Shown: positions 303 to 56,586, numbered from the stretch's first letter. The stretch: 63,695 nucleotides of DNA from Candidatus Bathyarchaeota archaeon (GCA_963827165.1 CAWGZR010000013.1:1-63695); one strand, 5' to 3'. Made by a program: numbers and translations. The notes: generated by a model not told the origin, from the sequence alone.

Positions 303-381
303 AACCGAGGATCAACCCTTTCAGTTTTTTTGAAAGCGAGAAGAAAAATCAAAATAATCAATTTTGGAGGAAAAAAGAAAA

Positions 382-1278
382 ATGAGTTTTGTAGAAGACG
401 CTCTAACCTTTGTTGATAGCGCATCGATTCAGTATCCAGAACTGAACCAGGTCATCATAGAGATGACTATGCCAAACCTGATCTTGAAAAGACTACTCAC
501 AGACGATGTTCTCAAGCATGGCCGAACTAAGACTTACACGATTGAAAACGGCTCTCACAGTGTAGGCATAAGCGAAGTGGCGCCAGGCACCGCTGCACCC
601 GTCGATTACACGCCTATGAAATTCGCGACGGTTAGCCCTTACAAACGTATGGAAGCCATCGAGATTCCTAAAGAGGTCGTTGAAGACGTTGACTTGCCAG
701 TGGTTAACCAGCAGCTCAAAAGACTTGCGAGACGTCTCGCATATCAGATTGAGTTAGATTGCTGGACCGTGATGCTTGCCGCAGTTCCAAGCGCAAACAG
801 CTTTGCATGCACCGGCAAAACAATCACTGTAACAGGCACCGAATTCACCAAGGCAAACACTGCAGGCATGGAAGACTTCAACAATGCTGAGGCTTTGATT
901 AACGCCGGAGACTTTTTGATGGACACGATTGTCTGCAACCCGATCCAGAAACGAGACATCAAGAACCTGCCCAACTACAGCCTATACCGCAACGAGATCT
1001 CGCCGATTACTCAGAAGCCGATCCAGATGCTGGGCGAATGGGAACTTTGCTGGTCAAACGTTGTTCCCGCAGGGACTATCATTTGCTTGTCAACAGGCAA
1101 GAACCTTTCTGCTTCCTATGCCCCTCTAGGGATGTTCCTTGTGAAGAGACCGCTCACAACCGATGTTGAGCTGCTCAAATCCAAGGAACTGGTGAAGCCG
1201 ATTCTCAGCACCCGATATGCTCCGATCATACTCAACGGTCAATGCCAAGCCGCGATCACAGGGTTAGCAACTAGTTAA
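382..1278 (+). CDS. Major capsid protein, HK97-like fold
   Basis: About 298 aa; 'VSPYKRMEAIEIPKEVVEDVDLPVVNQQLKRLARRLAYQIE' and 'IVCNP' resemble HK97-fold capsid motifs; GGAGG upstream; virion gene order. Confidence 0.8.
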   Translation: MSFVEDALTFVDSASIQYPELNQVIIEMTMPNLILKRLLTDDVLKHGRTKTYTIENGSHSVGISEVAPGTAAPVDYTPMKFATVSPYKRMEAIEIPKEVVEDVDLPVVNQQLKRLARRLAYQIELDCWTVMLAAVPSANSFACTGKTITVTGTEFTKANTAGMEDFNNAEALINAGDFLMDTIVCNPIQKRDIKNLPNYSLYRNEISPITQKPIQMLGEWELCWSNVVPAGTIICLSTGKNLSASYAPLGMFLVKRPLTTDVELLKSKELVKPILSTRYAPIILNGQCQAAITGLATS

Positions 1279-1357
1279 GCTTAGCTTGTTTTGCCCATAT
1301 CTTTTAACTATGGACCGTAAAGCCGGCTTCAAATTAAACAATTTACGGAGACTTTTC

Positions 1358-1819
1358 ACGTCAACTTACCCAGCGTTAACTTCGTTAGAAGAAGTTATCG
1401 GCTTTCTAAATGCTACCGGACCAGATAGCAACAGCAATTATCTGGTTTACGGGCTATCTGTTTCAAGCAACAGCGTCCAAGCATACGTTGATCACGCGAA
1501 CACCTACATAGGCAGCTTGGTGCCCACCGTAACATCAACGGATCCGCGTTACTCGTTTGCGCAGTTAGCCGCACTTGATCTTGCGTGCATGAGCGTTTTA
1601 GTTGCAGCAAGCGGCGGCATGCTTTTGGGCGCGGCAGATTACAAACTTGGCGACTTATTCGTAACTAAAGGCACCATCGGAAAATTCTCATTTCAAAGCG
1701 CAGTACAAAGCTTCCAAGACAGTTTCACCCGAAACATAGTAAATCTTTCAACTGTAGCCATAGGCGCTCAAGCACGGCTGGGGCATGAAGTTCCTCATTG
1801 TAGAGGATGGGGGCATTAG
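1358..1819 (+). CDS. Putative head-tail adaptor (ORF track start 1286; probable start ACG 1358)
   Basis: Follows the capsid gene; 'TSLEEV..FL' N-terminus and 'DYKLGDLFVT' are typical of adaptors; GGAG 7 nt before the ACG. Confidence 0.55.
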   Translation, partial: TSTYPALTSLEEVIGFLNATGPDSNSNYLVYGLSVSSNSVQAYVDHANTYIGSLVPTVTSTDPRYSFAQLAALDLACMSVLVAASGGMLLGAADYKLGDLFVTKGTIGKFSFQSAVQSFQDSFTRNIVNLSTVAIGAQARLGHEVPHCRGWGH

Positions 1820-1821
1820 GA

Positions 1822-1926
1822 ATGAAGAAGCGAAAGCTTAGGCTTCTGCTTATTCCGGTTGCTATAGTGCTTTTCGTGATAGGTTGGCTTCTTTATTATT
1901 TTGGCAGAAAGCGGAGGAAAGCTTAG
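1822..1926 (+). CDS. 34-aa single-pass membrane peptide
   Basis: MKKRKLRLLLIPVAIVLFVIGWLLYYFGRKRRKA; fills the gap in the viral operon. Confidence 0.55.
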   Translation: MKKRKLRLLLIPVAIVLFVIGWLLYYFGRKRRKA

Positions 1927-2364
1927 ACGTCAACTAATCATGCCCTAGCCGTTTCGGAGTTGCTGCAGGAGAATTGGGCGCTATCAAGTCCAGTGGCTAC
2001 CGCGAATATTTTGTGGCCTACCACTCGCATGGACGCGATTGGGATTACTCAGGGAAAAGGAACCTTGCAAGTAGCCGTCTATAACGCGAGCCCAAGCAAG
2101 CAGGTGGATGCGCTTAGCCGCGAATGTTATCTGGTTACTGAAAAACTTGTTGTAGACATAATTGTTGTTAACGCTAGCCAAAGCGCAGCTGATTTAGCGG
2201 TTGCAGAATCTATTTTGGAGGCATTTCAGGCTGAAGTTAGCCGCATTATACACTTGCAAGACCCAAACTATGTGGTGACCGGTGAGCCGATTCACAGTAA
2301 CGCAACTGAAGTAACCCGCGTCATGATCAACATTGACGCCGTTTACTTTAGCATTTCAAGTTAA
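1927..2364 (+). CDS. Putative tail terminator/neck protein
   Basis: Size, beta-rich C-terminus and position in the head-tail module; GGAGG then ACG at 1927, in frame with ORF 1960..2364. Confidence 0.45.
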   Translation, partial: TSTNHALAVSELLQENWALSSPVATANILWPTTRMDAIGITQGKGTLQVAVYNASPSKQVDALSRECYLVTEKLVVDIIVVNASQSAADLAVAESILEAFQAEVSRIIHLQDPNYVVTGEPIHSNATEVTRVMINIDAVYFSISS

Positions 2365-2380
2365 TAGGCAGGTGAAGTCA

Positions 2381-2500
2381 ATGGCAGAACAAAAAAGGGC
2401 AGCAAACCAGAAATTTAAAACGAAATTTAGCACTTGGGTTGTAACTTACAAAAACGGCTCTCAGGTTCTTGTAGAGCATAGAGTAACGAAAATAGCTTAA
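2381..2500 (+). CDS. 39-aa viral hypothetical protein
   Basis: GGTGA ribosome-binding site; MAEQKRAANQKFKTKFSTWVVTYKNGSQVLVEHRVTKIA; its 3' end recurs at 35654 and 36338. Confidence 0.6.
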   Translation: MAEQKRAANQKFKTKFSTWVVTYKNGSQVLVEHRVTKIA

Positions 2501-2536
2501 GGAGAATACAGCGGTCTGCATCAAAGGTGAAGCGAT

Positions 2537-2899
2537 ATGAGTATTTCTGTTCAGGTAAATTTGTCAAATTTTGATACGTTGAGCAGTTGCTTTGATTGTC
2601 TTTGTGAGCAGTACCCAGAAGCCGTTAGGCAAGCATTGATGAATGTTGCTCAGGATATTTTGGCGACTGCAAACACGTTAGTTCCAGTCAGAACAGGCTT
2701 TTTGAAAAGCACCATAGCGATTGAGCAACCCAGCAATTTCCAACTTAAAGTTAAAGCTACAGCGCCTTATGCGTATTATGTTGAGTTTGGCACTAGGCGC
2801 ATGTCTGCCCGGTTGTTTTTGACTAACGCGGTTAATCAGCACTTAAGTGAGCTTGCACCGGGAATTGAACAGCAAATCCAAGATTTACTGCAAGGTTAA
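2537..2899 (+). CDS. HK97 gp10 family tail-completion protein
   Basis: Hallmark motifs PVRTGFLKSTI and YAYYVEFGTRRMSARLFL. Confidence 0.9.
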   Translation: MSISVQVNLSNFDTLSSCFDCLCEQYPEAVRQALMNVAQDILATANTLVPVRTGFLKSTIAIEQPSNFQLKVKATAPYAYYVEFGTRRMSARLFLTNAVNQHLSELAPGIEQQIQDLLQG

Positions 2900-2937
2900 C
2901 GGTTTTAAAAGTAATCATTTTAATCGAGGTGAAAAAT

Positions 2938-3359
2938 ATGAGTTTAGCAACTACGCCAGTTCTAAGTCGGAATGCAGTTGTCCAGGTGGGCGGAGCGGCA
3001 ATCGGTTTTCTCACCGACTTCACCATGGATGTTAAAGCGGAAATGATTAAGGAGTATGTTTGCGCGTCAGGTGGGTCTCCGTCGCCAGCTTTTACGGCAA
3101 GCGGCAACCAGTCTTACACGTTTAAGGCTTCGGCGCTTTATGTTCCAGCAAACTACGCAGCACTACTAACAGATGTTCTCAACGGCTCATTGGTTACAGT
3201 TATTGGGGTCCACAAGGCACGACCACAGGATCAGGCACTCCAAAAATCACGTTGAGCAACGTTGTCTTAACCGCTTACAGCGTCAAAAACGGACAAAAAG
3301 GCACAATAGCGAATGATATTAGCGGTGAAGCGCAAAGTGTGGCCACGAGCACCTTCTAG
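2938..3359 (+). CDS. Tail tube (major tail) protein with a 1-nt frameshift near 3203
   Basis: ATTGGGGTCC lacks one T relative to paralogous copies (IWGPQG); restored frame ends ...ISGEAQSVATSTF*; lies after gp10 and before the tail chaperone. Confidence 0.7.
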
Positions 3360-3480
3360 TGCTTTTTCTTCCCATTTGTTAATGGGGAGAGTATGTGTAA
3401 GTGAAAAGCGGTTTGGGAATTAGAATTTAATCCCCAAACACAAGCTTAAATCGTCGACCTATTTTAGTACCAAAATCTGT

Positions 3481-4011
3481 TTACCCAGACCAATTCTCTG
3501 TCATTGTAGCACTTGCAGAATCAAGATTTAATGTTCCAGCATCGGCAGTACCACCAGTTATCCCTAAGAATTTCCAAGTTATGCTTACTGAATAAGTATC
3601 TTGATTCGGAAGAGTAACAGAGTAGGTTCCACCATTTGCGTCTGCTACATAGTTATTTCCAGTTGTCTCACTCGTAAAAGTAATCTTTTCTGGGCTTGTT
3701 CCAGTGCCGGTAGTTGTGACTGTTCCGCTTAATACAACTTGAGATGGTTTACTGATTCCAGGGACACTTCCTGGGACAGCCATCGCAACCACAATAACGA
3801 TTACTATGATAGCTAAGATAAGTCCTATTGCCAAGTTTCTGCCAGTATGTGATGTTTTATGTTTTTGGTAAGGTGGTGATGGGGTTGGCATTGGTTGAGA
3901 AGGTGAAAAAGACATAGATTTCTGCGGAGCATTAGAAAGAGGTTTACCGCAGAATGGGCAAAACTGAGTACCTTCCTCAACTTGTTTGCCACAATTTGGA
4001 CAGTACGGCAT
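3481..4011 (-). CDS. Zinc-ribbon membrane protein (cargo)
   Basis: CPNCG/CPFCG, Pro-rich linker, one TM helix, extracellular beta domain. Confidence 0.8.
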   Translation of the reverse strand: MPYCPNCGKQVEEGTQFCPFCGKPLSNAPQKSMSFSPSQPMPTPSPPYQKHKTSHTGRNLAIGLILAIIVIVIVVAMAVPGSVPGISKPSQVVLSGTVTTTGTGTSPEKITFTSETTGNNYVADANGGTYSVTLPNQDTYSVSITWKFLGITGGTADAGTLNLDSASATMTENWSG

Positions 4012-4133
4012 CAAGTGCACGCTCGCTTTTTGATATAGAGCGATTTGCATATAATTTTTTGCGAAGATCATAAACGACATGCTTTTCGCTTCATAAATTT
4101 CATCGAATGAATAAAAAAGAAAAGAAGTTTAGG

Positions 4134-5765
4134 TTATTTTGGGCTTTTAGGTGTTTTTTGTTTACTCGCTTTAACTAAGATGGCTGAACAAGTAGCAATC
4201 GCTAAAACCAGTAGCACAACGAATGAGGTTAATTCGGGAATTGTTGGAGTTGGGGTCGGTGTAGGTGTAGTTGTTGGTGTTAGCGTTGGAGTGGGCGTTG
4301 GCGACGCAGTAGGAACTGGCGTTGGCGACGCAGTAGGAACTGGAGTGGGCGTTGGCGTTGGAGTTGGATTCACTGTAATAGAAACAGTATTAGAAGCAAG
4401 AGAAGTAACTGGAGTGGAAGCGCTATCAGTCACCGTACAAGTAACTGTATGTGAAGTTCCAGCGGCAGTGTAAGAATAGCTTGCACTGTTAGTGCCAACT
4501 GCTGTGCCGTCCAGATACCATTGATAGGACAGAGTGCCTGAACCGCCACTGGCTGTTGCAGTGAATGCTTGAACCTCACCAACAGTTAAAGTAAGCGGAC
4601 CAACAGGAGCTATAGTAACAGTCGGAGCAGCGTCTACTGTAACAGAAGTCGCGTTAGAACTCGCTACTGCACCAGTGCTGTCAGTAACTTGAAGTATGAA
4701 GAACCAGGTGCCAGTAGTTGTGGAACTTGTAGTTACAAAGTTGTAGCTCGTTAAAGTTGCGCCGCTAATCGACGAGTAAGAGGAGACGCCGGGAGCCTCA
4801 CTGAACCATTGGTACGTGTAGGGCGAAGCGCCAATCGTTACCGCAGTAGACGTCAAACTGGAAGTTTGACCCTGATCCACCGAGCCAGGCGAAGCAGACA
4901 CAGAGGGAGGAACCAAAATTTGAGAATCTGACATGACTGAGACCGTGTTGGATCCGTAATTGGCTACGAATACTTCGCCTTTACCGGAATCATAAGCTAC
5001 ACCCCAGGGTTCAGTTCCAACGGGCACGGTGGCAACCACGCCGTTGACGCTATCCGATATAACTGAAACCGTGCCAGAACCGTAATTGGCTACGAATACT
5101 TCGCCTTTGCCAGAATCATAAGCATGCATCATGAGGGTTGCTTCCCACGGACACGGTTTTGACGACGGCATTGGTGCTGTCCGATATAACCGAAACCGAG
5201 TTAGACCCGTAATTGGCTACGAATACACCTCGCCTATGCCAGAATCATAAGCCACACCATTGGGTCGGTTCCAACGGGTACGGTGGCAACGATGGTATTG
5301 GTGCTGTCCGATATAACTGAAACCGTGCCAGAACCGTAATTGGCTACGAATACTTCGCCTTTGACCAGAATCATAAGCCACGTTACGGGGACCGCTTCCA
5401 ACAGGTATGGTGGCAACAACGGCGTTGGTGCTGTCCGATATCACCGAAACCGTGTTGGACCCCTCGTTGGCTATGAAGATTTCGCTTTTGCCAGAATCAT
5501 AAGCCGCACTCTCGGGTCCGCTTCCAACAGGTATGGTTGCAACCACGCCGTTAGTGCTGTCCGATATAACTGAAACCGTGCCAGAACCGTAATTGGCTAC
5601 GAATACTTCGCCCATGCCCGAATCATAAGCCACACCTTCGGGTTGACTTCCAACCGTTATCGTGGCGGTTACTCCGGCGGCGTGGACCGAGTTGACTGCT
5701 GACAATGCAAAAGTCATAATGAATAATAAACCTAAAAGCTTCCAAACTTTGGCTTTCATATCCAT
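4134..5765 (-). CDS. YVTN/YncE beta-propeller surface protein with Ig/PKD-like domains, PT linker and PEF-CTERM-like tail; frameshifted around 5130-5370
   Basis: Signal peptide; repeats 'GVAYDSGKGEVFVANYGSGTVSVISDSTN'; IPEL + TM + basic tail. Confidence 0.8.
4930..5660 (-). repeat. Six ~126-bp tandem coding repeats (YVTN blades)
   Basis: GAATCATAAGC-containing unit starts at 4984, 5110, 5239, 5365, 5491 and 5617. Confidence 0.85.
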
Positions 5766-6002
5766 TCCTCAATCTTTCCTTCTAACGCCCGAGAAACATG
5801 GACTACGGAAAAATCATAATGAGTTGAGGTAATTAATCCGAGAACAGTGAAACCTGGTTTCTTTTTCATGTTTGCTCCCTTTCTCCAAGTAAAGCACATA
5901 AGCACTAATTCGCTGAATCAGTTTATACGTTTTTTGTATTCAAGTTATCATTACTCAATTTCGTTCTGTTTCAAAGTTAAAAATTGTTAATGAGGTGATT
6001 TG

Positions 6003-6452
6003 ATGAGTGAAGAAAAATTTGATAGCGAAGGTTTCGAGAAGCTTAAAGCAGCATTCAACGAATACGAGGCAGAGCAAAAAGAGCGTTTCAAAAACTTTAG
6101 CGTAAGCCTGTTGAAAAATAGTAAGGTTCCGCAGGAGGCTAATGTGCCTGGCGCCGGATGGGTCAAATTTGTTTTGCTGACCCATAACGAGCTTAGCGAT
6201 TTAGCGAAGTTTTACAAGGATGATCAGCGCGAATTTGAACTGCAGGCACTTCTGAAGATGATGAAGCCCTGCTACCCTGATTTAACAGAGAAGGATCTGC
6301 GTGATGCGCCTTGGGATTTGGTGCGTGCACTGGAGAAAGCTTTGCTTAATGAGGGTTTTTTACCGCGAACGGTGAGGCGGTCAATGACTGGATCAGCTGG
6401 AGCGGTGAAGCCCAGCGGCCCCACCACTTATCTAAATCTTGGAGAGTTTTGA
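6003..6452 (+). CDS. Tail assembly chaperone with a -1 slippery site; 3' end replaced at 6411
   Basis: First viral gene after the tail tube; GAG GGT TTT TTA at 6351-6362; open -1 frame FTANGEAVNDWISWSGEAQR. Confidence 0.65.
   Translation: MSEEKFDSEGFEKLKAAFNEYEAEQKERFKNFSVSLLKNSKVPQEANVPGAGWVKFVLLTHNELSDLAKFYKDDQREFELQALLKMMKPCYPDLTEKDLRDAPWDLVRALEKALLNEGFLPRTVRRSMTGSAGAVKPSGPTTYLNLGEF
6411..6426 (+). other. tRNA 3'-end fragment (att-like) CCCAGCGGCCCCACCA
   Basis: T-stem 3' strand + acceptor 3' strand + ACCA; would match a tRNA beginning GGGGCCG (Pro/Trp-like). Confidence 0.6.
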
Positions 6453-28911: not shown

Positions 28912-28929
28912 GTTGGCAACAAGGGCAGG

Positions 28930-29105
28930 CTTTAACGCCTACAATTTCGCCAATATCAACACAAGGAGACTCGCCTACTGCAGAACCTTCATCAACGCCT
29001 ACCGTTCCAGAATTTCCTTGGTTGGTGATTCTGCCCTTGCTTCTTTCTGTATTCTCGATTGCCGTGATAGTTTGGCATCGAAAAACCACTAATTTGAAAC
29101 AATAG
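28930..29105 (+). pseudogene. Orphan 3' end of a PEF-CTERM surface-protein gene
   Basis: ALTPTISPISTQGDSPTAEPSSTPTVPEFPWLVILPLLLSVFSIAVIVWHRKTTNLKQ*; no start codon or body. Confidence 0.8.
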
Positions 29106-29146
29106 AACTTTCCCACAGTCGGGTGCTAGTCAACCTCTCAATGATA

Positions 29147-29199
29147 GTCAAGAAATTTGGACTAAAATCAGTCAAGAAACCTTAACGAGAAGCCTTTTA
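29147..29199 (+). promoter_or_regulatory. Conserved upstream element, copy 2
   Basis: GTCAAGAAATTTGGACTAAAATCAGTCAAGAAACCTTAACGAGAAGCCTTTTA. Confidence 0.65.
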
Positions 29200-29224
29200 A
29201 CGTAAACCGTTTCCAAAGGTAAGC

Positions 29225-30601: not shown

Positions 30602-30710
30602 CCTTTTTTTCCACGGTTAGGGTACCCACCGCGATATAGTCAAAAACTCATTATGCTAAGCCTGTTCTAAAAAGTAGTTTTATTACCCTATAACCCTACT
30701 GCTATCAAGA

Positions 30711-31355
30711 ATGCATATCAAGAGTGCGATAACAATGAGCATGGATGTCAAGAGCAAAACTTTGGCTTTAATACTAACATTAATTGTCGCTTTGTCATTT
30801 CTGACTTTAACGGTAAAACCTGCAATTGCTCAAAATAATACAAACCCATCTGTTTCCATCTTGTATCCTACGGACGGCACTGTTTTCAACGTAAGTATTG
30901 AGGGCGCTACCTTCCAGTTGCTTTACCGAACCAATGATACGCTTTCGTGGGCTGGGTATAGCATTGATGGAGGCGCTAATGTAACTTGCACTGGAAACAC
31001 CACTGATTATAACGCATTTATTAACGATAGCTACCAATTCGATTTCGGACATCCAACTTTGACTCTCTATGCGAATGATACCGCAGGCAATTGGGCTATC
31101 CCACAGACAGTTACCTACACAGTTTACTTTTATCCAGATACCTACCCTGCACCTTCTTCTGCTTCCCCAACACCGACATCAGCCACAAATCAAACAGCAA
31201 TTCCAAATTCTGTTGACCCAACCTCAACGCCCACCGTTCCAGAAATACCTTATTGCATAGTTATGTTTGTTCCATTAATCCTTGTTGCAGTAGTGATGTC
31301 TCTTCAAAAGCGTTTTGGGGGGTCAAATTCCTCATCATTTTCAAAAAAGCGATAG
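30711..31355 (+). CDS. Ig-like surface protein with PEF-CTERM-like tail
   Basis: Signal peptide, 'WAGYSIDG', 'YANDTAGN', VPEI + TM. Confidence 0.8.
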   Translation: MHIKSAITMSMDVKSKTLALILTLIVALSFLTLTVKPAIAQNNTNPSVSILYPTDGTVFNVSIEGATFQLLYRTNDTLSWAGYSIDGGANVTCTGNTTDYNAFINDSYQFDFGHPTLTLYANDTAGNWAIPQTVTYTVYFYPDTYPAPSSASPTPTSATNQTAIPNSVDPTSTPTVPEIPYCIVMFVPLILVAVVMSLQKRFGGSNSSSFSKKR

Positions 31356-31665: not shown

Positions 31666-31974
31666 AAATCAAGGGATAAGCGGCAAGTGTTTTTAAGGGT
31701 TATTTCTTTTCGCTCTCTTGTCTGAGGTTAGAAATCGAAAGTTATTTAGCTTCTGACAGTGTAACAACAAATTGATAGTTATGTCGCATGGTGAAAGAGA
31801 AGCGGTATGCCCTGAGTGCGGCTCCCCCTTAGTTGTCTCCGTAGAAAAAACCCAAAAGACGGGAAAACTGCAAGTTAAGTATGCTATCACATATATCCAA
31901 GGAACCGGAATATGCAATAGGTGACTTTTGCCGTTATCATTACCGATATAATTAATTTTCATTTTTTTTACCTT

Positions 31975-32499
31975 TCAATTTGTTGCTGGTTCTACTTTTG
32001 AGACGTACTCTGTTTGTATTCGAAGATAGGCGCCCAAGCACACAAAAAAGGCAACGCCGAGAACAATAGTCTCCTCAAACAGAACCATATCTTTTAGCTG
32101 GTAAAACGCTGTTGCTGAACTTAGAACCAGTAGGGCAGCGAACGCGACAAAAAGACCTTTCAAGATCGTTTCAGCATGCTCGAGATAATTCGCAGCCTTC
32201 CTGTTCGCTTTTAAGTCTGCAACCTTTTCTACGGTTTGTACACTCAGCAAAGCGTCTTTTCCTTGATCTGAAAGACAGTACTTGCCGTATTCATCGGTTT
32301 TTACCAAGCCGTCAAGCTTGTTTAAGTGATGCAAAAGGTGACCACTGCTTTCTATTCCTGTTTTCTTTTTTAGCTCAGCAAAGCCCGCTGGGCCTTCGCT
32401 TAAAGCCTTTAAGATAATTACTCGTGTAGGATGCCCTAATGCATCGAAAACTTCCGCTTGCTGCATGTCTTTTTCTGTAGCGTCATTATTGTTTGTCAA
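31975..32499 (-). CDS. ArsR-like wHTH protein with two C-terminal TMs (cargo)
   Basis: FDALGHPTRV.IL, GFAELKK, HHLNKL. Confidence 0.85.
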   Translation of the reverse strand: MTNNNDATEKDMQQAEVFDALGHPTRVIILKALSEGPAGFAELKKKTGIESSGHLLHHLNKLDGLVKTDEYGKYCLSDQGKDALLSVQTVEKVADLKANRKAANYLEHAETILKGLFVAFAALLVLSSATAFYQLKDMVLFEETIVLGVAFFVCLGAYLRIQTEYVSKVEPATN

Positions 32500-32609
32500 T
32501 TGGATGCCTCAAAGATAGCATAGTTACATTTTTCTTATTTAATCCTCGTTTGTAGACCAACGACCTTTTTAGAAATACTTTGGATTTATTGAAAAAATAA
32601 GGAAAAAGC

Positions 32610-32840
32610 TTAGAATGAGCCTGGGTTATAGTCTGGGCTTCGCCGCTAATGTCGTTTGCAATAGTTCCTTTCTGCCCGTTCTTTAAGCTGTAAGCAGTTA
32701 AGATAACGTTGTTGTAGGTGATTTTTGGGTTTCCTGTGGTTGTTCCTTGTGGTCCCCAAATTACTGTTACGACCGTGCCGTTTAGAACGTCATTTAGTAA
32801 TGCCGCATAGTTTGCTGGAACATAAAGCGCCAAAGCTTTG
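32610..32840 (-). pseudogene. 3'-half fragment of the tail tube gene (third copy)
   Basis: KALALYVPANYAALLNDVLNGTVVTVIWGPQG...ISGEAQT; paralogous to about 3121-3359. Confidence 0.9.
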
Positions 32841-32919
32841 AGCGTTTTTGTTCCTGATTCTCTGAAAATCAAAAAGAAAGGGAAAAATTAGATTTTCCCA
32901 TTTTTCTCGCGGTTTTCGT

Positions 32920-34125
32920 CTATGCCGTTTGCGAAGATTTTTTAACCTTTTTCCTGCCAATAGCAGCCACAGCTAAAGTAATAGCCGCCATTGCCGCGAT
33001 TGAAACGATTGCTGCATTGCTGAACTCCGGTACCTTTGGTGTGGGCGAGGCAGATGTTGTAGAGGTTCCAGAGGGGGCGGAGGTTGGAGTTGCGGATGCG
33101 GATGTGCTGGCGGAATCTGATATGACGGCAAGCACGCTGTTGTAAGTGCCTACAAATGTTTCTCCCTTGCCCGAATCATAAGCCATTCCTTCTGCGGCTA
33201 AGCCGCTGCCTAAGGAGACATATGAAACCACGGCGTTACTGCTGTCCGATATGACTTGGAGGGTGCCTCCTGGACATGCTACAAATACTTCGCCTTTGGC
33301 GGGGTCATAAGCCACAGCGGTGGGGTTTCCAGCTGCATCGTCTGCCAGCGACATATCTACGGTTGTAACTACGGCATTGTTCTTGTCATTTATAACGGAG
33401 AAAGAAGCGGCATCCCAATCTGCCACGAACATCTCGTCCTTGGCAGAGTCAAAGGCTATGCCTTCAGGAGCGCTAATCGAACCCGTTATGGTCGCAACCA
33501 CTTGGTTATTGCTATCCGATATGACTGAAACAGAGCTGTCTTCCTCATTGGTTACGAAGACCTCGTTTTTTGCGGAATCATAGGCTACTCCCCACGGAGT
33601 GTTTCCCACGGGGACTGTTGCAACTATAGTGTTTGAGCTGTCAGATATGACGGAAATGGCGTTGCCATCAACTACGAATATTTCTCCTTTGTTGGAGTCA
33701 TAAGCTATGCCCGTCTGGGCGGCCCCTTCTAGCATTATAGTTGCAACGACGGTGTTTGAGCTGTCTTGTATGACTGAAACAGTACTGTTGAGGCCGGAGG
33801 AGGCGGGGTTTTCATCATTAATTACGAACATTTCTCCTTTCCCTGCATCATAAGCTATGTCTACGGGATCGACTCCCACGGTCACGGTTGCAACGACGGT
33901 GTTTGAGCTGTCCGAAATTACTGAGACTGTGTTGGCTGATTCTCCGTTAGTCGAGTATATCTCTCCTAAGATAGAATCATAAGCTAAGTATTCACCAACT
34001 CCCCCACTAGGTACGGTGGGTGGTGTTGGAAGTTGCGTGACAGCGGCATGAACCATGCTGAGTGTCGATAATGCAAATATCGCAATAATTATTAAACTAA
34101 AAATTCTCCAAACTTTAACTTTCGT
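32920..34125 (-). CDS. YVTN beta-propeller surface protein with PEF-CTERM-like tail (probable ACG start at 34125)
   Basis: 'AYDS.K.E.FV' repeats; signal peptide homologous to the 5765 gene extends upstream of the ORF-track start; VPEF + TM. Confidence 0.85.
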   Translation of the reverse strand, partial: TKVKVWRIFSLIIIAIFALSTLSMVHAAVTQLPTPPTVPSGGVGEYLAYDSILGEIYSTNGESANTVSVISDSSNTVVATVTVGVDPVDIAYDAGKGEMFVINDENPASSGLNSTVSVIQDSSNTVVATIMLEGAAQTGIAYDSNKGEIFVVDGNAISVISDSSNTIVATVPVGNTPWGVAYDSAKNEVFVTNEEDSSVSVISDSNNQVVATITGSISAPEGIAFDSAKDEMFVADWDAASFSVINDKNNAVVTTVDMSLADDAAGNPTAVAYDPAKGEVFVACPGGTLQVISDSSNAVVSYVSLGSGLAAEGMAYDSGKGETFVGTYNSVLAVISDSASTSASATPTSAPSGTSTTSASPTPKVPEFSNAAIVSIAAMAAITLAVAAIGRKKVKKSSQTA

Positions 34126-34371
34126 AAATATTCCTCAACCCTTTCCTTTTCCAAAAAGGGATTCCCTAACGAATTTAAAGATATCGATAGGTCACTTGAT
34201 TCTATTCAGCTAATTCGCGATTTTATTGCAGATGCAAATTTTTTATATAAAATGGAGTGACTTAAGATACTTACATTTAATTAGAGTACATTTGATGCCA
34301 ACTTACGCATAGAAAATAGCCCTTAAATGCAACGCTCATAAAAAACTTGAAAATGGAAAATAATAATATAT

Positions 34372-34791
34372 TTAGAATGTTCCTGTGGTTACGGTCTATG
34401 CTTCACCGCTAATATCATTTGCTATGGTGCTTTTCTGACCGTTCTTTACGCTGTAAGCTGTCAAAACCACGTTGCTTAACGTGATTTTTGGAGTTCCTGA
34501 TCCTGTGGTCGTGCCCTGTGGACCCCAAATAATGTCACTAATGAGCCGTTGAGAACATCTGTTAGTAATGCTGCATAGTTTGCTGGAACGTAAAGCGCTG
34601 AAGCTTTGAACGTGTAGGATTGGTTGCCGCTTGCCGTGAAAGCTGGCGATGGAGACCCGCCTGATGTGCAAACGTATTCCTTAATCATCTCTGCTTTGAC
34701 ATCCATTGTGAAGTCAGTTAGAAAGCCGATTGCCGCTCCTCCTACCTGGACAACTGCGTTCCTGCTTAGAACTGGTAGTTGCTAAACTCAT
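34372..34791 (-). pseudogene. Tail tube gene, second full-length copy (two indels and a premature TAG)
   Basis: Aligns end to end with 2938-3359; TAG replaces the Gln codon after SGEA. Confidence 0.9.
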
Positions 34792-34830
34792 ATTTTTCAC
34801 CTCGATTACAAATGGTTACTTTTAAAACCG

Positions 34831-35202
34831 TTAACCTTTCAGTAAATCTTGGATTTGTTGCTCAATCTCGGGCGCTAATTCGCCAAGATGCTGATTGACT
34901 GAGTTAGTGAGGAAAAGCCTCGCCGACATTTTCCTTGTGCCAAACTCCACATAATACGCATAGGGAGCTGTCGCTTTGACCTTAATTTGAAATTTGCTTG
35001 GCTGCTCGATTGCAATGGTGCTTTTCAAATAGCCTGTTCTGACTGGAACTAGCGTGTTTGCCGTCGCTAAGATGTTCCGGGCGACATTCATCATAGCTTG
35101 CCCAACCGCCTCGGGATATTGCTTGCAGAGACACTCGAAGGAGCCGCTCAATGCATCGAAGGTTGAAAGATTAACTGAAATCTTGACACTCATCAAAATC
35201 AC
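34831..35202 (-). CDS. HK97 gp10 family protein, second copy
   Basis: Near-identical to 2537-2899 (PVRTGYLKSTI, YVEFGT). Confidence 0.9.
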   Translation of the reverse strand: MILMSVKISVNLSTFDALSGSFECLCKQYPEAVGQAMMNVARNILATANTLVPVRTGYLKSTIAIEQPSKFQIKVKATAPYAYYVEFGTRKMSARLFLTNSVNQHLGELAPEIEQQIQDLLKG

Positions 35203-35249
35203 TCGGTTGTCATGTTTTATATGCGAGATGGGACAATAGGCAAGAAGGG

Positions 35250-35642
35250 ATGCCTTTGAAATCTACTGATGAGCAGCTGAGCGTTAACATGAAAACTGCT
35301 ATAGGCTTGCTTGAGCTTTTTGTTATAGCGATTGTTCTGGCTTTCGTTGCTACTGTTACAACGGGAACGATGGTGATGCAGGTTCTCGCAGCGGGCTTAA
35401 TTACGCCGATAGTTGTTGTCGCCCTGGTTTTCATTTATTATTGTCGAAGAAGGAAAATTTGGAGTTACGCCGGAGCAACGGTTTTAGGTGCTTTGGGCGT
35501 CGTGCTCCGAGTGATAGTGAGTACTCAACCGAGTCTTGAGGTAGGCGGAGGTCTCCCAGTTGGAGTGACTGTGCTCTACATTGTTATAGGGTCGCTTGTT
35601 TCGCTGAAAAGCTATGAATCAGTACTAGAATTAAAGAAATAA
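35250..35642 (+). CDS. Four-TM membrane protein (cargo)
   Basis: Four hydrophobic segments. Confidence 0.75.
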   Translation: MPLKSTDEQLSVNMKTAIGLLELFVIAIVLAFVATVTTGTMVMQVLAAGLITPIVVVALVFIYYCRRRKIWSYAGATVLGALGVVLRVIVSTQPSLEVGGGLPVGVTVLYIVIGSLVSLKSYESVLELKK

Positions 35643-35653
35643 CTGCTTCAGAA

Positions 35654-35676
35654 TTAAGCTATTTTCGTTACTCTAT
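35654..35676 (-). repeat. Exact 23-bp copy of the 3' end of the 39-aa viral gene (2478-2500)
   Basis: Reverse complement reads ATAGAGTAACGAAAATAGCTTAA. Confidence 0.85.
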
Positions 35677-35791
35677 CGCTCGTGAACTTTAATACTGATT
35701 TCCTTCACATCGATCCAGCTGCCGTTGGATCCGCGCGGGAGGCTCAGCACGTTTAAATAACCAGCCCGAAAGATAGACCAAGGCATGAAAT

Positions 35792-36328
35792 ATGAGAAAG
35801 CGCATGGTAACGATTGGTGTAGTTTTATTAATCGTAGGAATTGCATTTCTTGTATCCGGAGTGATTGGTCTTCGAGGATCCACAAATACAGTAAAAGTTT
35901 TTAATCAGCCGAACCCGGGCGAATATGTTTCTAGTGAGATTCTCTTAAACTCATCTTCAACGATCATTGTAAGATCTCCTCCAAGTGTCGGGGGATTAAT
36001 TCCTGCTCTATACATAAATTTGGTTAATTCAACTAACATAGTCACCTATGAAGCAGAGTTTCCTACAGCGGTGGCAGGAGCCGTTGAGTACAATTCAATA
36101 CAGGGCAACTATTACTACGTAATCTTTTCCTCAACTCAACCCAACACAAGATTAGCAATTACGGGGTCACTTGGAACAACAGCTGCATTAGGGTTACTAA
36201 CGCTTGCAGGCATAGTCTTCATCATTATTGGAATTATCCTTGCACTTTTAGGAGCATTCCGAAAGCCCAAAGGCCAACGGAAAAAAGATGAATACGAATA
36301 CAAATATCCTGAGCCAGTCAAAACATAA
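35792..36328 (+). CDS. Membrane protein with N- and C-terminal TMs (cargo)
   Basis: Two TMs flanking a beta-rich domain. Confidence 0.75.
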   Translation: MRKRMVTIGVVLLIVGIAFLVSGVIGLRGSTNTVKVFNQPNPGEYVSSEILLNSSSTIIVRSPPSVGGLIPALYINLVNSTNIVTYEAEFPTAVAGAVEYNSIQGNYYYVIFSSTQPNTRLAITGSLGTTAALGLLTLAGIVFIIIGIILALLGAFRKPKGQRKKDEYEYKYPEPVKT

Positions 36329-36337
36329 ACCAATTTT

Positions 36338-36410
36338 CTAAGCTATTTTCATTACTCTGTGCCCCACAAGCACCTGAGAACCGTTCTTTGTAAGTCACAA
36401 TCCAAGAGCT
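36338..36410 (-). pseudogene. About 73-bp 3' fragment of the 39-aa viral gene
   Basis: Reverse complement AGCTCTTGGATTGTGACTTACAAAGAACGGTTCTCAGGTGCTTGTGGGGCACAGAGTAATGAAAATAGCTTAG aligns with 2429-2500. Confidence 0.85.
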
Positions 36411-36621
36411 ACGGATACGCTTGCTGAAAGAACGAGGAATGAAAATTCTACCATTTGACGAGCTTCATGCCCTGAAAACAGGTAGCCTGCTGCTCTCCCA
36501 TCGAAATATACCCCTTGTTGACGCCATAATCGCGTCCTATGTGAAGACAGGAGATGCAGAATATGTGTTGACTGATGACCCACACTTTAAGACATTGAGC
36601 GTCAAAACAAAATGGCTTTAG
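36400..36621 (+). pseudogene. PIN/VapC toxin C-terminal fragment
   Basis: DAIIAS...VLTDDPHFKT, similar to the C-terminus of 42758..43141. Confidence 0.75.
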
Positions 36622-36984
36622 ATTATCTCTTTGCTTTCGGTTTATGAGAATATTTGATTCTTTTAACTTTCTTTGCCGAGGAAAAACGCAAATGAGAAAG
36701 CGAATGAGTTCTGATTGGAGTCGAGATTGCCGGCAAGATACCGCTCGTCAGCCTTTTTAGCATTTATGGAAACTATATGGTCTGTTCGAATTGAACACGA
36801 GCAAAATGGCGTCTCAGCATTGCAGTAAGTTAATTTGGGTACATTGATCTTCATGGGAGGACAAGAATATAATGGACTTACTCATTTAAACTGAACGACA
36901 AAAGATTTCTAAGAAATCTTGAGTGGATTGGGGAGTTCTGGTTTTCTGTTTCTTAGCCACCGGTTCGGCTGCCGTGGTGCTCTA

Positions 36985-37534: not shown

Positions 37535-37951
37535 GTGAAAAACCTGAACATAGACCTCTTAAAGCGCCGCGTAGAAATGCTCGACAGCGTTTGCAAAGGC
37601 TTCCATCCCTCTTCAGTAATAAGCCAACTTGCCGAGAAATACCATGTTTCCGCGAGGTGCCTATGGTGCGATTGGGAACGCCGAAGAAAATGGGTGCCCA
37701 CACTTCTAAACCTAGAAAACTACGGTGAGTTCGCGCAGGAAATAGAGACAAAACTTAACGCTGTCCAGAAAGCTGCCTGGAGCACCTACCTTCGAACGGA
37801 AAATGACAACGCACGAGTGGGCGCTTTAAAAGTCATCCTAGAAAGCCTCGAAATCCATAGCAACGCAGTACTGTCAAAAGAAGTTATGTCTCGGCTCAGA
37901 GAGGTCGAAGAACTGGCAGGTAAGAAAACAAAGGAGATTGAAAAGGCTTGA
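37535..37951 (+). CDS. Putative terminase small subunit
   Basis: N-terminal HTH-like segment plus helical C-terminus; first gene of the operon ending in TerL; positional inference. Confidence 0.5.
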   Translation: MKNLNIDLLKRRVEMLDSVCKGFHPSSVISQLAEKYHVSARCLWCDWERRRKWVPTLLNLENYGEFAQEIETKLNAVQKAAWSTYLRTENDNARVGALKVILESLEIHSNAVLSKEVMSRLREVEELAGKKTKEIEKA

Positions 37952-38236
37952 ACACGGACAAAATCATGAAGCGTTTGGAGACTGCCGAGAAAAAGCTAGT
38001 CTCAAACATGGAGAAGTTTGTTGTTAGGGATTTTGGCGGCGTCTACTTTGGCGATTGCGGCGTTGGACTTTCGCAGAAGCAGTTTGACGCATGGGTTGAA
38101 TCGCCAAGAGCCAACGGTTAAGGTCACGGTCATAGAGTACAGGGTAGATGACGCCGCCGGGGATGGCGATGCTGCCTCAAGTGGCCGTTCTGCCTGCTTT
38201 GAAATAGAACAAAAGTCAGTTCGAATGGAGGAGTAA
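37948..38236 (+). CDS. Viral hypothetical protein, probably frameshifted near 38100
   Basis: TTG start overlaps the upstream stop (MNTDKIMKRLE...) and probably continues in the 38018..38236 frame. Confidence 0.4.
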
Positions 38237-38238
38237 AT

Positions 38239-38805
38239 ATGAGCGAAAAGAAAACAACAATAAAGGTTCCCGACGCCTATCTGCCACTTCTGGAAGACCT
38301 CAGGTTTCTTAGAAGCGACGAAAATAACCCAAACAAAATGACCATAAAACAGAAGGAGCAAATTTGGAGCAGCCTGCAAAGATTCGGCTGGACCTACCCG
38401 ATTATAACCAACAAAGACGGCGTTTTTGCGGATGGAGAGCAACGTGCCAGCGTCAGTACTGAGCACGGTGAGTTTTTTGCGCCAGTCTTGCGTCTGCCAG
38501 TTTCTGACGTTGACAGAAGGATGCTGCGGCAAATACTAAACAAACTAAAGGGCAAGCATAACAAGCAGCTTGACGGCGCTGAGTACATGCGCATTGCAGC
38601 TGCCGGCGAGAAAGATTTTCTAAAAGCCCTACTGGAATCTGTCGGTGAGAGGCTCCCCGAAGACACGGGTGGATTGTCTGATGGATCAAATATCATTCCT
38701 GAACTCTACGAGCTCATAATAGAATGCAAAGATGAGAGCCAACAGCACAGTTTCTTCGAGAAACTCAAGGGTGAAGGTTACAAAATAAGAGTTCTCAATT
38801 TGTAG
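38239..38805 (+). CDS. ParB-N domain protein of phage packaging regions
   Basis: NPNKM, SLQRFGW..PII, DGEQR; C-terminal 'LIIECKDE.QQ...FEKL..EGY'. Confidence 0.8.
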   Translation: MSEKKTTIKVPDAYLPLLEDLRFLRSDENNPNKMTIKQKEQIWSSLQRFGWTYPIITNKDGVFADGEQRASVSTEHGEFFAPVLRLPVSDVDRRMLRQILNKLKGKHNKQLDGAEYMRIAAAGEKDFLKALLESVGERLPEDTGGLSDGSNIIPELYELIIECKDESQQHSFFEKLKGEGYKIRVLNL

Positions 38806-38818
38806 GAGGCATCACCGT

Positions 38819-39502
38819 TTGGACTTTGATTTTATAAAAACGTGGAATAAACCAGAAAGCTTTCGAGCCCAAAGCGTCGTGGGCAGCTTTACGTTAAATG
38901 ATGTAAAGTTGGAGAAGCGCTTTAAAGGTTCACTGCCGATAGAAGACGGCGACTGGCAAATCGGAGTCATCGTTGGCCGCAGCGGCTCAGGCAAATCAAG
39001 CATAGCCAAACAAATGTTCCCAGACGGATATATCACAGGCTTCCAGTACACGCACCAATGCATAATAGACGAATTTCCAGAAAGCCTCGAAACAAGCGAA
39101 ATAACACGTATGCTCTGCAGCGTCGGCTTCGCCTCCCCGCCAGACTGGCTCAAAACCTACAGTTGCCTGAGCCAAGGCGAAAAGATGCGCGTTGATTTAG
39201 CCCTTGCACTGAGTCTACCCCAGAAAACTGTGGTTTTCGACGAGTTCACATCAGTTGTAGACCGAGAAGTCGCAAAAATCGCCTCATACGCAATCAGCAA
39301 GGCGATTCGACGCGAGAAAGACAAGAAATTCATAGCCGTAACCTGCCATTACGATGTAGTCGATTGGCTGGAGCCAGACTGGGTTTTCTGCACCGACACA
39401 ATGGAGTTTGACCGAAAAAAAGAACTCGGCCGCCCATTGAACTCAAAGTTCATCGGTGCGGCACTTCCATGTGGACGATGTTTCGGCAGTATCACTATCT
39501 AA
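38819..39502 (+). CDS. ABC-type ATPase (phage-associated, GNAT-linked)
   Basis: GRSGSGKS, LSQGEKMR, FDEFTSVVDR, VTCHYD. Confidence 0.9.
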   Translation: MDFDFIKTWNKPESFRAQSVVGSFTLNDVKLEKRFKGSLPIEDGDWQIGVIVGRSGSGKSSIAKQMFPDGYITGFQYTHQCIIDEFPESLETSEITRMLCSVGFASPPDWLKTYSCLSQGEKMRVDLALALSLPQKTVVFDEFTSVVDREVAKIASYAISKAIRREKDKKFIAVTCHYDVVDWLEPDWVFCTDTMEFDRKKELGRPLNSKFIGAALPCGRCFGSITI

Positions 39503-39960
39503 ACGGCAAGCTTGGCGCAGGCGTCAGATGCTACGTTGCCCTCTACCAGCAAAATCCGGTAGCGTTTATCGCAGTCGCTCATGTCCGAATGAAAAGTCAC
39601 TTCTTCCGTGTCAGCCGACTCGTCGTCTTGCCCGATTACCAGGGCATAGGGATTGGAAAGCGACTACTCAATTTTATCGCTGAACTTTACACTTCACAGG
39701 TGGATTTGCCGTTCTATCTGGTTACAAGTAATCCTCAGCTGCTGCGAGGAAACCTCGGCAAATGGAAAGTGAAGCGATTAGGGCATGGAAGCCATGGGAG
39801 AGGAAACACTAGGATAAATCTGGGTCTCGCGGGTTCGACGAGCAGGGGGCGCCTTACCGTTTCACTTGAATATATCCCTCAAAATCTAACCTGGGCTTTG
39901 GCCTCTCAAAGTTCTGGTGTGCTCAAAGAAGGAGTTCTGATGGAATGCAAAAAACAATAA
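39421..39960 (+). CDS. GNAT acetyltransferase in the -1 frame relative to the ATPase
   Basis: FRQYHYL, RLVVLPDYQGIGIG; frame open back to the A7 run at 39415-39421. Confidence 0.85.
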   Translation, partial: RTRPPIELKVHRCGTSMWTMFRQYHYLNGKLGAGVRCYVALYQQNPVAFIAVAHVRMKSHFFRVSRLVVLPDYQGIGIGKRLLNFIAELYTSQVDLPFYLVTSNPQLLRGNLGKWKVKRLGHGSHGRGNTRINLGLAGSTSRGRLTVSLEYIPQNLTWALASQSSGVLKEGVLMECKKQ

Positions 39961-41195
39961 TAATCCGCTATAAGCCTCACGCTGGGCAAATTGAGTTCCA
40001 TAAGTGTCCTGCAAGATTTAGGGTGCTTAACTGTGGACGCCGCTGGGGCAAAACCATTGCAGGCGCCAACGAATTCATAAGCCAAATGTGGAAACAAGGT
40101 CCAAACATAGTAGGCTTCGCCGTGGCACCTACCTATTGGCACACGCAGCGGCAATGGACCGAATTTCTCAACTTCTGCCCAACTGAGCTAATAAGGGGCA
40201 TTTACCGCTCTGGCCGGCATGTAATCCTCAAAGGCAACCGCAATATCTGGTTTAAAAGCGCCGACAACCCTGACTCACTGCGCAGCCAAGGCGTAAAAGT
40301 TCTCTGGGTTGACGAGGGCTCTCAAATCGCGGAGGAAGCCTGGACGCTTGCCCTCAGACCAGCATTGATGGATTATAAGGGAATAGCTTTCTTCACCGGC
40401 ACACCAAGAGGGCATAACTGGTATTTTCAACTCTGGACCCGCGGCCAAGACCCCTCGCAAACTGATTACAAGAGCTGGAGCTTCCCCAGCGGCAGCAACC
40501 CCTATCTGGATCCAGCGGAGATTGCTTCTTTTGCCCGTGACATGCCTGAGCTCGCTTACCGCCAAGAAGTTATGGCCGAGTTTCTCGAGGACGTTGGCTC
40601 TGTCTTCAGGGGCGTAGACCACATAGTCAAAGGTACCTTCCAACCGCCTGAACCATACAAGCAATATGTAATGGGCGCAGACCTCGCCAAACTCGTAGAC
40701 TTCACAGTGCTAATCGTTCTGGACATGGATGGGCGCCTATGCGCCTTTGACAGGTTCGCACAGTTAGACTGGGTTTTCCAACGCAAACGCATAGTTCAAC
40801 TAGCCCAACAATACAACGCCCGCCTACAAATCGACAGCACAGGAATCGGAGACCCAATCTGCGACGAACTCCAACGTGAAAACGTTCGAGTTGACGGCTA
40901 CAAATTTACCAATACCACAAAAAAAGACCTCATAGAAAACCTGAGCATAATGATCGAGAACGGAAAGATTACAATACCGCAAATTCCCGAGTTAATAAAT
41001 GAACTCAAACTCTACGGCTACAAGATCAGCGCCAATGGGAACGTGCAGTACGGCGCACCAGAAGGCTACCACGACGATTGCGTAATTGCACTCGCGTTAG
41101 CTGCTTGGCAACTTAAGCGTTATCCACCTCTTGAAGGATCCGGTGTCGCGGTGATTAGGAAAAAGCCAGTTTACAGAGACGAGGATGATGATTAA
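39945..41195 (+). CDS. terL: Terminase large subunit
   Basis: PHAGQ, CGRRWGKT, VDEG, TGTP, nuclease GADLA...DFT, HDDCVIALALA. Confidence 0.95.
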   Translation: MQKTIIIRYKPHAGQIEFHKCPARFRVLNCGRRWGKTIAGANEFISQMWKQGPNIVGFAVAPTYWHTQRQWTEFLNFCPTELIRGIYRSGRHVILKGNRNIWFKSADNPDSLRSQGVKVLWVDEGSQIAEEAWTLALRPALMDYKGIAFFTGTPRGHNWYFQLWTRGQDPSQTDYKSWSFPSGSNPYLDPAEIASFARDMPELAYRQEVMAEFLEDVGSVFRGVDHIVKGTFQPPEPYKQYVMGADLAKLVDFTVLIVLDMDGRLCAFDRFAQLDWVFQRKRIVQLAQQYNARLQIDSTGIGDPICDELQRENVRVDGYKFTNTTKKDLIENLSIMIENGKITIPQIPELINELKLYGYKISANGNVQYGAPEGYHDDCVIALALAAWQLKRYPPLEGSGVAVIRKKPVYRDEDDD

Positions 41196-56502: not shown

Positions 56503-56586
56503 GAGCTTTAAGAAGCCTCCTCTGGCGGCTTTCAGTCTGGTTTATCCATCCTTGGCACTCGCATGCCCAACTGCTGTCTGTTTTGA

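Follow-up and report, generated by a model that had tools for sequence, protein, structure and literature searches.

The question raised by the locus described here is how accessory genes come to alternate, in an archaeal genome, with broken ends of virion genes. The DNA analysed, hereafter the window, is the entire 63.7-kb contig C13 (63,695 nucleotides; CAWGZR010000013.1) of a Candidatus Bathyarchaeota genome (GCA_963827165.1) that comprises 3.13 Mb in 14 contigs and has relatives among Bathyarchaeia metagenome-assembled genomes (MAGs) from soil, bog and peat. Between positions 31975 and 36621, four cargo genes are interspersed with whole and partial genes of a siphovirus-like provirus. The original prediction held that this array is integron-like and grows by units made of a virion-gene 3' end plus cargo. 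We think it probable that the region is instead a relic made from pieces of at least three related siphovirus-like proviruses, in which moron-type cargo, the scars of non-allelic and one-sided homologous recombination, and erosion around selected cargo have produced the observed pattern; the earlier interpretation is partly supported.

Two other copies of the provirus enter into what follows, a second, partial one in the first 6.4 kb of the window and a third, complete one that BLAST of the genome located on contig C5; loci compared with them carry numbers beginning with L, and a partial virion gene is called a stub. Read along the minus strand from its outer end, the array has these parts:

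36421..36621, plus strand: PIN-domain gene truncated at its 5' end, 66 aa, matching Pfam PIN PF01850 at profile positions 64-117 of 120 only; adjoins the outermost stub
36338..36411, minus strand: 73-bp 3' stub of s39 (a 39-aa virion gene), ending in TAG; 86% identical to 2428-2499
35792..36328, plus strand: cargo 1, Mem178, an open reading frame (ORF) for a 178-aa membrane protein; unit 35742-36337
35688..35722, minus strand: candidate remnant of the s39/gp10 intergenic region and the gp10 start, from a match of about 70% by eye to 2513-2555 and an alignment with L046; weak, without statistical support
35654..35681, minus strand: 28-nt 3' stub of s39 (23 nt exact), ending in TAA; from self-BLAST and shuffles
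35250..35642, plus strand: cargo 2, Mem130, an ORF for a 130-aa membrane protein
34831..35202, minus strand: intact HK97-gp10-like tail completion gene; TIGR01725 at 42 bits (cut-off 30.8), PF04883 above cut-off, 81% amino acid identity to the C5 copy
34372..34802, minus strand: tail-tube pseudogene; compared with intact alleles it lacks 2 nt close to its start and 1 nt mid-gene, and CAG>TAG creates a premature stop towards its end
32920..34056, minus strand: cargo 3, a 378-aa YVTN beta-propeller surface protein with a PEF-type C-terminal anchor; TIGR02276 and NHL matches; unit 32948-34214
32880..32899, minus strand: terminator-like hairpin followed by a T-run, 3' of the YVTN gene in the spacer before the tail-tube stub; spacer kept in L043
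32593..32845, minus strand: chimeric, frame-shifted tail-tube 3' stub, from about codon 58 to the stop plus 17 nt; 79% identical to 34372-34613
31975..32499, minus strand: cargo 4, a 174-aa ArsR-type winged-helix protein with hydrophobic C-terminal segments; DUF7347 and HTH_5 matches; unit about 31942-32565

All four of the similarities on which the original prediction was built were recovered when the window was compared with itself by BLAST. The gp10 and tail-tube genes at 2550-3331 on the plus strand match 35179-34400 on the minus strand (83.5% over 783 bp), the 3' part of the tail tube forms a direct repeat between 32610-32845 and 34372-34613 (79% over 243 bp, E 1e-50), and s39 at the left end of the window matches both of its fragments in the array (2428-2499 with 36411-36339, 86% over 73 bp, E 2e-16; 2474-2500 with 35681-35654, 27 of 28 positions). 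Within the shorter fragment the 23-mer at 35654-35676 is identical to 2478-2500, and none of 100 dinucleotide-preserving shuffles matched at three mismatches or fewer. The gene order and names also hold, with gp10, YVTN and ArsR resting on family matches and the tail tube on its predicted fold. No family matched the 143-aa tail-tube protein in the profile scans; a structural model of the intact C5 allele (predicted local distance difference test, pLDDT, 73) has a siphophage tail tube, 8gtb_A, as its best match in the PDB (E 1.5e-5), and the fold search, in which 15 matches reached E <= 0.001, retrieved proteins of tail tubes, Hcp and the tubes of contractile systems, so that the label is supported by the predicted fold. 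Both membrane genes, listed earlier in a reading of the minus strand, lie on the plus strand and are convergent with the virion genes.

The outermost fragment is not the duplicate within the array that it had been taken for. No complete 39-aa gene is present in the array, and in L045 and L046 the s39 whose stop codon adjoins Mem178 at this junction is a complete gene. What remains in the window is therefore the end of a resident gene, cut by the deletion that also truncated the PIN gene. An intact PIN paralogue of 127 aa lies at 42758-43141. The Mem178 unit as a whole has identical limits in L045, L046 and L068, at 82-86% nucleotide identity, and L068 has no virion genes.

The full-length tail-tube gene of the array, listed earlier simply as a tail tube, is a pseudogene. 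A programmed frameshift was considered and ruled out, because each frame-shifted copy (both of those in the window, and those in L044, L045 and L046) has an indel of its own. The tail-tube stub conforms in part to the claim that fragments run to stop codons: it aligns through the stop position and then continues 17 nt past it, to 32593, with the TAA out of frame through a 1-nt deletion. A 128-aa open frame at 32486-32872 on the minus strand, which spans the stub into the spacer, arises from this loss of the old stop and is probably no gene; it may serve as a warning to annotators that short open frames through stubs are not genes. The stub is chimeric. Its first 45 nt agree with the class I alleles at 41 of 45 positions, as against 33 of 45 for the class of L057-L059, and its remaining 187 nt agree with L057 and L058 at 173 of 187 positions, as against 144-145 of 187 for class I, in line with the proposal that stubs represent diverged alleles contributed by other, related elements. 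The end of the surface gene, the spacer and the start of the stub are common to the window and to L043 in another genome (G019), at 76% identity and with a different cargo body, and the joint between YVTN gene and stub is thus old.

A diverged copy of the 3' part of a gene, lacking the 5' part and lying downstream of the gene itself, is also what silent 3' cassettes or a diversity-generating retroelement varying the tail-tube C-terminus would leave. We give this idea next to no credence: the 59 differences between stub and gene involve all four bases and do not favour adenine, both stub and full gene are frame-shifted, and no reverse transcriptase was noticed among the ORFs read, although no family search was aimed at one. 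The dead tail tube, the lack of head genes adjoining the array among the ORFs around it, and the PIN gene cut at the outer joint are signs of a relic.

The parent of this relic is a siphovirus-like provirus family of Bathyarchaeia, whose tail-tube fold and HK97-gp10-like protein agree with a tailed (HK97-type, Caudoviricetes-like) virus. Its complete C5 member runs through ParB-like, packaging, capsid, connector, s39, gp10, tail-tube, chap, ArsR-type membrane protein, tape-measure-like and 1312-aa fibre-like genes in that order, where chap is the name given to the 151-aa gene after the tail tube, and where the labels portal, terminase, tape measure, chap and fibre derive from gene order, size and position. 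Matches to the tail-tube protein were found in 18 IMG/VR viral contigs and in 35 of the 201 related genomes, counting G000. Two 1.5-kb contigs in a bacterial MAG labelled 'uncultured Actinomycetes bacterium' (L074, L075) carry gp10 and tail tube of the archaeal virus at 97-98% amino acid identity and are likely a binning contaminant.

Comparison of these loci shows fixed slots with variable cargo across genomes and viral contigs, the outcome for which the original prediction had looked. The compact viral contigs L091-L094 have gaps of 22 nt between s39 and gp10, 27 nt between gp10 and tail tube, 67 nt between tail tube and chap, and 86-89 nt between chap and the tape-measure gene. The same four gaps measure at least 400 nt in 12 of 27, 7 of 35, 22 of 35 and 6 of 20 loci, respectively, counts that include near-duplicates (L051 with L100 and L101; L053 with L103-L105; L096 with L097; L091 with L093 and L094), and when filled they hold 0.4-3.7 kb of extra genes, in proviruses and viral contigs alike. 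The gap between hc145 and s39 is filled in one of 28 loci, and that between the tape-measure gene and dist in one of 26. Empty slots occur in the C5 copy, in L074 and in L091-L094, and filled ones in other loci, which places the cargo between genes that are adjacent in relatives. As had been noted, the second window copy has an empty first slot (36 nt) and, behind its tail tube, 2640 nt of other cargo, encoded on the opposite strand. Divergence sets in exactly at the s39 stop codon, and 15-30 nt past the tail-tube stop codon, behind a T-rich hairpin. Large inserts between MCP and hc153 in nine loci consist of one conserved same-strand gene set and may represent a lineage module rather than cargo.

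The cargo is varied. The 108 slot ORFs of at least 60 aa fall into 53 clusters, the largest of which (14 of the 108) is an ArsR-type/DUF7347 membrane family that occurs in four slots and on either strand (e.g. L001:7147-7893, L096:8599-9501 and window 31975-32499). Of the 41 cluster representatives that measure 90 aa or more, 35 were scanned against Pfam; the hits included YVTN/NHL propellers, a NosD-like beta-helix, a flavodoxin and a pyridoxal phosphate (PLP) enzyme, and most representatives had no family; Mem178 was likewise assigned to none in profile scans. No PADLOC family match points to a defence role of the cargo beyond a generic winged-helix similarity to Csa3, and we regard the ArsR-type membrane protein as a candidate lysogeny or exclusion factor.

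All four cargo genes of the array are intact and under purifying selection, with ratios of nonsynonymous to synonymous substitution (dN/dS) against homologues of 0.05-0.09 for the ArsR-type gene, 0.10-0.18 for Mem130, 0.25-0.33 for Mem178 and 0.27-0.37 for YVTN. Each is also found in loci without virion genes: the YVTN cargo has 86% nucleotide identity to L060, with no virion gene nearby, and the Mem130 homologues found, 69-73% identical, are confined to such loci (L069-L072). Two of the four lie on the plus strand and two on the minus strand, and their putative control signals, read from the sequence, include the hairpin and T-run after the YVTN gene and a conserved block upstream of the ArsR gene. 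The ArsR unit begins 28 nt beyond the end of the tail-tube stub, and about 60 nt of its upstream sequence is conserved across six contexts. In L035, L060, L065, L066 and L067, aligned to 32565, a GC-rich hairpin of differing sequence is followed by a common ACTCAGTTTT-like motif just before the conserved block, a putative promoter; in L060 the unit stands directly after a tRNA gene. A further observation concerns the YVTN protein, whose anchor recurs in the window at 27483-31355, where three or four paralogous surface-protein genes with a common PEF-type C-terminal anchor region are spaced at about 1.49 kb.

Whether the virion-gene 3' end is a special anchor can be judged from the stubs in other loci. 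Partial tail-tube pieces in the 201 genomes reach the 3' end in 12 of 13 cases, the other being internal (a 2-80 piece interrupted by the end of its contig was omitted, and a full gene split by a frameshift was not counted as two pieces). Pieces of chap at 63% identity or more in 120 genomes show the opposite polarity, 12 of 14 starting at the 5' end, two being internal and none 3'-anchored; two gp10 pieces are 5'-anchored and one is internal, and the control gene hc145 yielded few pieces. The succession of tail-tube 3' stub, cargo and chap 5' stub occurs in six loci (L032, L033, L034, L035, L040, L042). Complete or near-complete proviruses also have extra stubs, always beside cargo, and again of both polarities: 3' stubs of s39 (42 nt, just before gp10 in L059), of the tail tube (24 nt, L046) and of w39TM (L045), and 5' stubs of gp10 (L045) and of chap (L052, L056). 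No solitary mid-gene extra pieces were seen in the loci examined. Because 5' stubs of the downstream gene are about as frequent as 3' stubs of the upstream one, the 3' end is not a special anchor.

The proposal that the array grew by addition of '3' end plus cargo' units, with the virion-gene 3' end as anchor, had several points in its favour: variable cargo does occupy fixed slots, cargo is preceded by a 3' stub at two places in the window and again in L046 and in the otherwise complete provirus L059, the stubs are diverged alleles, and nearly all tail-tube pieces are 3'-anchored. We nevertheless hold it to be quite unlikely. Stub polarity is symmetric, the 73-bp piece is a truncated resident gene, no slot holds more than two units, cargo occurs on both strands, and the array belongs to a relic with a dead tail tube, arrays being confined to decayed copies in the limited sample available. 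The 18 viral contigs have no stub duplicates at the thresholds used, two of them having a tandem paralogue instead. No recombinase, and so no integron integrase, was found among the ORFs scanned in and beside the array; the nearest tyrosine recombinase, at 55477-56502, is 19 kb off and scores far below the cut-offs, at 33 versus 220 bits (XerA) and 20 versus 265 bits (integron integrase). An inverted-repeat scan of 31800-36500 revealed no attC-type structure common to the unit ends, which share virion-gene pieces instead.

How the joints formed is suggested by loci in which partners can be aligned. In L042, gp10 codon 75 is joined to tail-tube codon 124 at a 19/21-nt repeat common to both genes, and in L046 the loss of gp10 runs from the gp10 start region to that of the tail tube, which resembles it, so that two joints lie at short repeats. 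Further, the tail-tube gene of L034 has lost an internal segment, the gp10 start is fused to tail-tube codon 110 in L038, and L039 joins chap (1-44) in frame to the tail tube (112-143). The permuted order in L035 and L039 had brought to mind a Campbell-type circle with a 'stub-cargo-stub' intermediate; this is the less likely reading, since a deletion accounts better for L035 and the in-frame joint between chap and tail tube for L039. Among the fetched loci with a near-full tail-tube gene, a second piece is present only in the window, in L046 (the 24-nt stub) and in L107 and L108. In these last two, from IMG/VR (L107:10001-11103, L108:9031-10124), a second tail-tube paralogue follows right after the first; about 80 aa are inserted into it in frame behind residue 48, near the start of several long stubs (codons 48-58).

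From these data we infer the order of events and the recombination mechanism. Accessory genes of moron type would occupy fixed slots, each reaching from the stop codon and T-rich terminator of one virion gene to the ribosome-binding site of its neighbour. In recombination between two related genomes whose cargo in one slot differs, one crossover would fall in the homology of a conserved gene and the other would be non-allelic, either illegitimate or at a short repeat. The product would retain both cargo genes, parted by a stub that is the edge of the donor segment, with the upstream gene contributing its 3' end or the downstream gene its 5' end. It is their contiguity with the slot, and not a role of the gene end as a recombination site, that would make stubs extend to a stop or start codon. 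Later deletions would strip virion genes that the cell does not need, with selection protecting the cargo and its signals, and stubs would persist only beside cargo because the cargo stays under purifying selection.

Several findings weigh against this explanation, and the first concerns the assembly. Public contigs of four runs (X1-X4, from two studies) were aligned to 31900-36700, the run with the best contig coverage of the array possibly being the source sample; of the 14 runs listed for this DNA, none is recorded as RNA. Four of the five joints are bridged: J1 (s39 stub/PIN, about 36411-36420) by X1 and X4, J3 (tail tube/YVTN) by X1, J4 (YVTN/tail-tube stub) by X1, X2 and X3, and J5 (tail-tube stub/ArsR unit) by X1. 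Joint J2 (35667/35671, inside the 28-nt s39 stub) is bridged by none of the listed public contigs and falls at a contig break in X1. That break, together with the presence of at least three related provirus copies in a genome that is itself a MAG, is what one would expect if the array were a mis-join of reads from several copies or strains in the metagenome, a concern already voiced with the original prediction. The bridging of the other four joints by contigs of independent runs largely answers it; the YVTN/stub joint is moreover present in a second genome (L043), and the s39/Mem178 joint recurs in L045 and L046, so that we hold an assembly chimera to be highly improbable. Contig C13 has no terminal repeat and carries an aEF-2-like gene, and we treat it as chromosomal for these reasons. 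A circular element with a gene split across the contig ends was rejected on the same two grounds, and because the joined frame continues a restriction-system gene, not a virion gene.

Other points also tell against our explanation. No donor with s39 followed by Mem130, or with a tail tube followed by this ArsR unit, was found in 120 genomes of the genus, and donor contiguity is for that reason an assumption. The gp10 5' remnant beside the 28-nt s39 stub is weak. The loci were collected around tail-tube matches, many of them from related genomes, and the locus counts are consequently not independent. The ArsR unit has a near-identical left limit in six contexts (the window and five others), which could point to a more specific process. 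Finally, six tail-tube stubs (L035, L036, L037, L038, L039, L041) begin at codons 107-114, within about 20 nt, despite unrelated upstream DNA, a clustering that random breakage does not predict.

This pile-up would fit site-specific integration, by which small elements would enter the 3' end of the tail tube (or of s39) through an integrase acting in trans and duplicate an att-like segment; a tyrosine-recombinase gene does lie beside the relic in L032, and another in the window is the distant one mentioned above. Such integration is nonetheless very unlikely, since stub lengths vary from 23 to about 290 nt, stubs with the same limit have unrelated DNA on both sides, the full genes and stubs of one genome are not placed as attL and attR, and short repeats or collinear deletions explain several joints. 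The preferred break at codons 107-114 also figures in a reading of the stubs as working homology arms, made of the last ~30-290 nt of the tail tube and the first ~30-240 nt of the next gene. Relics would then form a chromosomal library of cargo that incoming related viruses could pick up, swap and stack by integrase-free exchange. We regard this as unlikely, a minority reading, because no pair of relic and virus with common cargo was found: in the sampled intact proviruses no close copy of the cargo occurs for any of six relic units, and the sole exception, L035 and L040, is a pair of relics.

With the origin of the array as a relic of several recombining proviruses remaining the explanation that we favour, the other virus-related features of the window are these:

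364..6452, plus strand: second partial provirus copy, with a capsid-like gene, connector genes, s39, gp10, tail tube, cargo and the next conserved gene
2381-2500, 2537-2899, 2929-3359 and 6000-6452, plus strand: within the second copy, s39, gp10, the tail tube with one frameshift, and the next conserved gene
3481-5765, minus strand: opposite-strand cargo of the second copy; the C5 copy lacks 3381-5972
37535..41195, plus strand: partial packaging module of small-terminase-like, ParB-like, ATPase, acetyltransferase-like and large-terminase-like genes, by tblastn homology to C5 provirus genes; labels positional; divergent from the array

The capsid candidate matches Phage_capsid_4 at 21.4 bits, below the cut-off of 27. 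The YVTN gene of the second copy (4134-5765, minus strand) is split into two frames (5217-5765 and 4134-5171) and is probably frame-shifted. Partial packaging modules stand head-to-head with tail-tube remnants in two genomes (window 37535-41195 and L041:4088-9054), the large-terminase-like gene being present in the window only and no portal or capsid genes following. The ATPase gene encodes 134 aa in the C5 provirus (L001:17213-17617) as against 227 aa in the window (38819-39502) and in L091, and the C5 copy may be truncated. At 55477-59226 on the minus strand, a tyrosine-recombinase-like gene lies beside an 879-aa helicase-like gene, and type I restriction-modification genes are found at 61.6-63.7 kb; these probably belong to another integrated element.

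The comparison with integrons, which the original prediction had invited, can now be made. An integron has an intI integrase gene beside its array, attI and attC sites, and mostly promoter-less cassettes in one orientation behind a common promoter. The present array shares with integrons the succession of gene units at a fixed place, with content that varies between strains. It differs in that its units lie on both strands, have upstream regions of their own and number at most two per slot, with no attI or attC, and this decayed relic with no integrase and no structured site common to its unit ends does not deserve the name of an integron-like array. A second point of comparison is provided by the hotspots between conserved genes of P2-like phages and P4-like satellites, which Rousset et al. 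reportedly described in 2022 as holding interchangeable antiviral cargo. Interchangeable cargo at fixed positions between conserved phage genes is common to both systems; the cargo there is antiviral, whereas here the only PADLOC similarity is that of the winged helix.

The joints themselves may be compared with those of homology-facilitated illegitimate recombination, known from the natural transformation of bacteria, in which one side is homologous, the other has micro- or no homology, and small duplications or deletions arise at the illegitimate joint. Short repeats lie at the L042 and L046 joints, and donors for the window joints were not found in the 120 genomes of the genus; the partners here would differ in being co-resident or incoming related viral genomes.

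The closest likeness is to phage morons, a concept whose older source is said to be work on HK97 and HK022. As in lambdoid phages and mycobacteriophages, one or a few genes lie between genes that are adjacent in relatives, with limits at gene boundaries, and the cargo appears to have its own upstream region and T-rich hairpin; the accepted origin of morons is illegitimate recombination filtered by selection. What differs is the host, a member of the Bathyarchaeia, the use of at least four slots in one head-tail module, and the dominance of the ArsR-type membrane family. Even the stubs have a described counterpart: in the Cluster I mycobacteriophage Island3, the last 18 codons of the inserted gene 68, about 50 bp, repeat the 3' end of the upstream gene, and the authors explain this by recombination between short repeats, within one genome or with an unknown partner genome (PMC3029335). 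Relative to that account, the window shows the pattern twice in one locus, with stubs of 28 and ~250 nt that are diverged alleles, in a decayed provirus. A term search of the main text of two papers (PMC10848311, PMC11705971) returned no mention of morons or variable slots in Bathyarchaeia viruses, and none of the top-ranked titles on morons of archaeal viruses deals with such arrays. The locus is an archaeal case of a process long known in bacteriophages; it represents neither a new cassette system nor a genetic element of a new class. Through it a provirus family is defined that has the ArsR-type membrane protein as recurrent cargo and four or more slots open to reuse, and it indicates that an uncultured archaeal lineage gains accessory genes as bacteriophages did, through events whose scars, in both stub polarities and at two short-repeat joints, can still be read.

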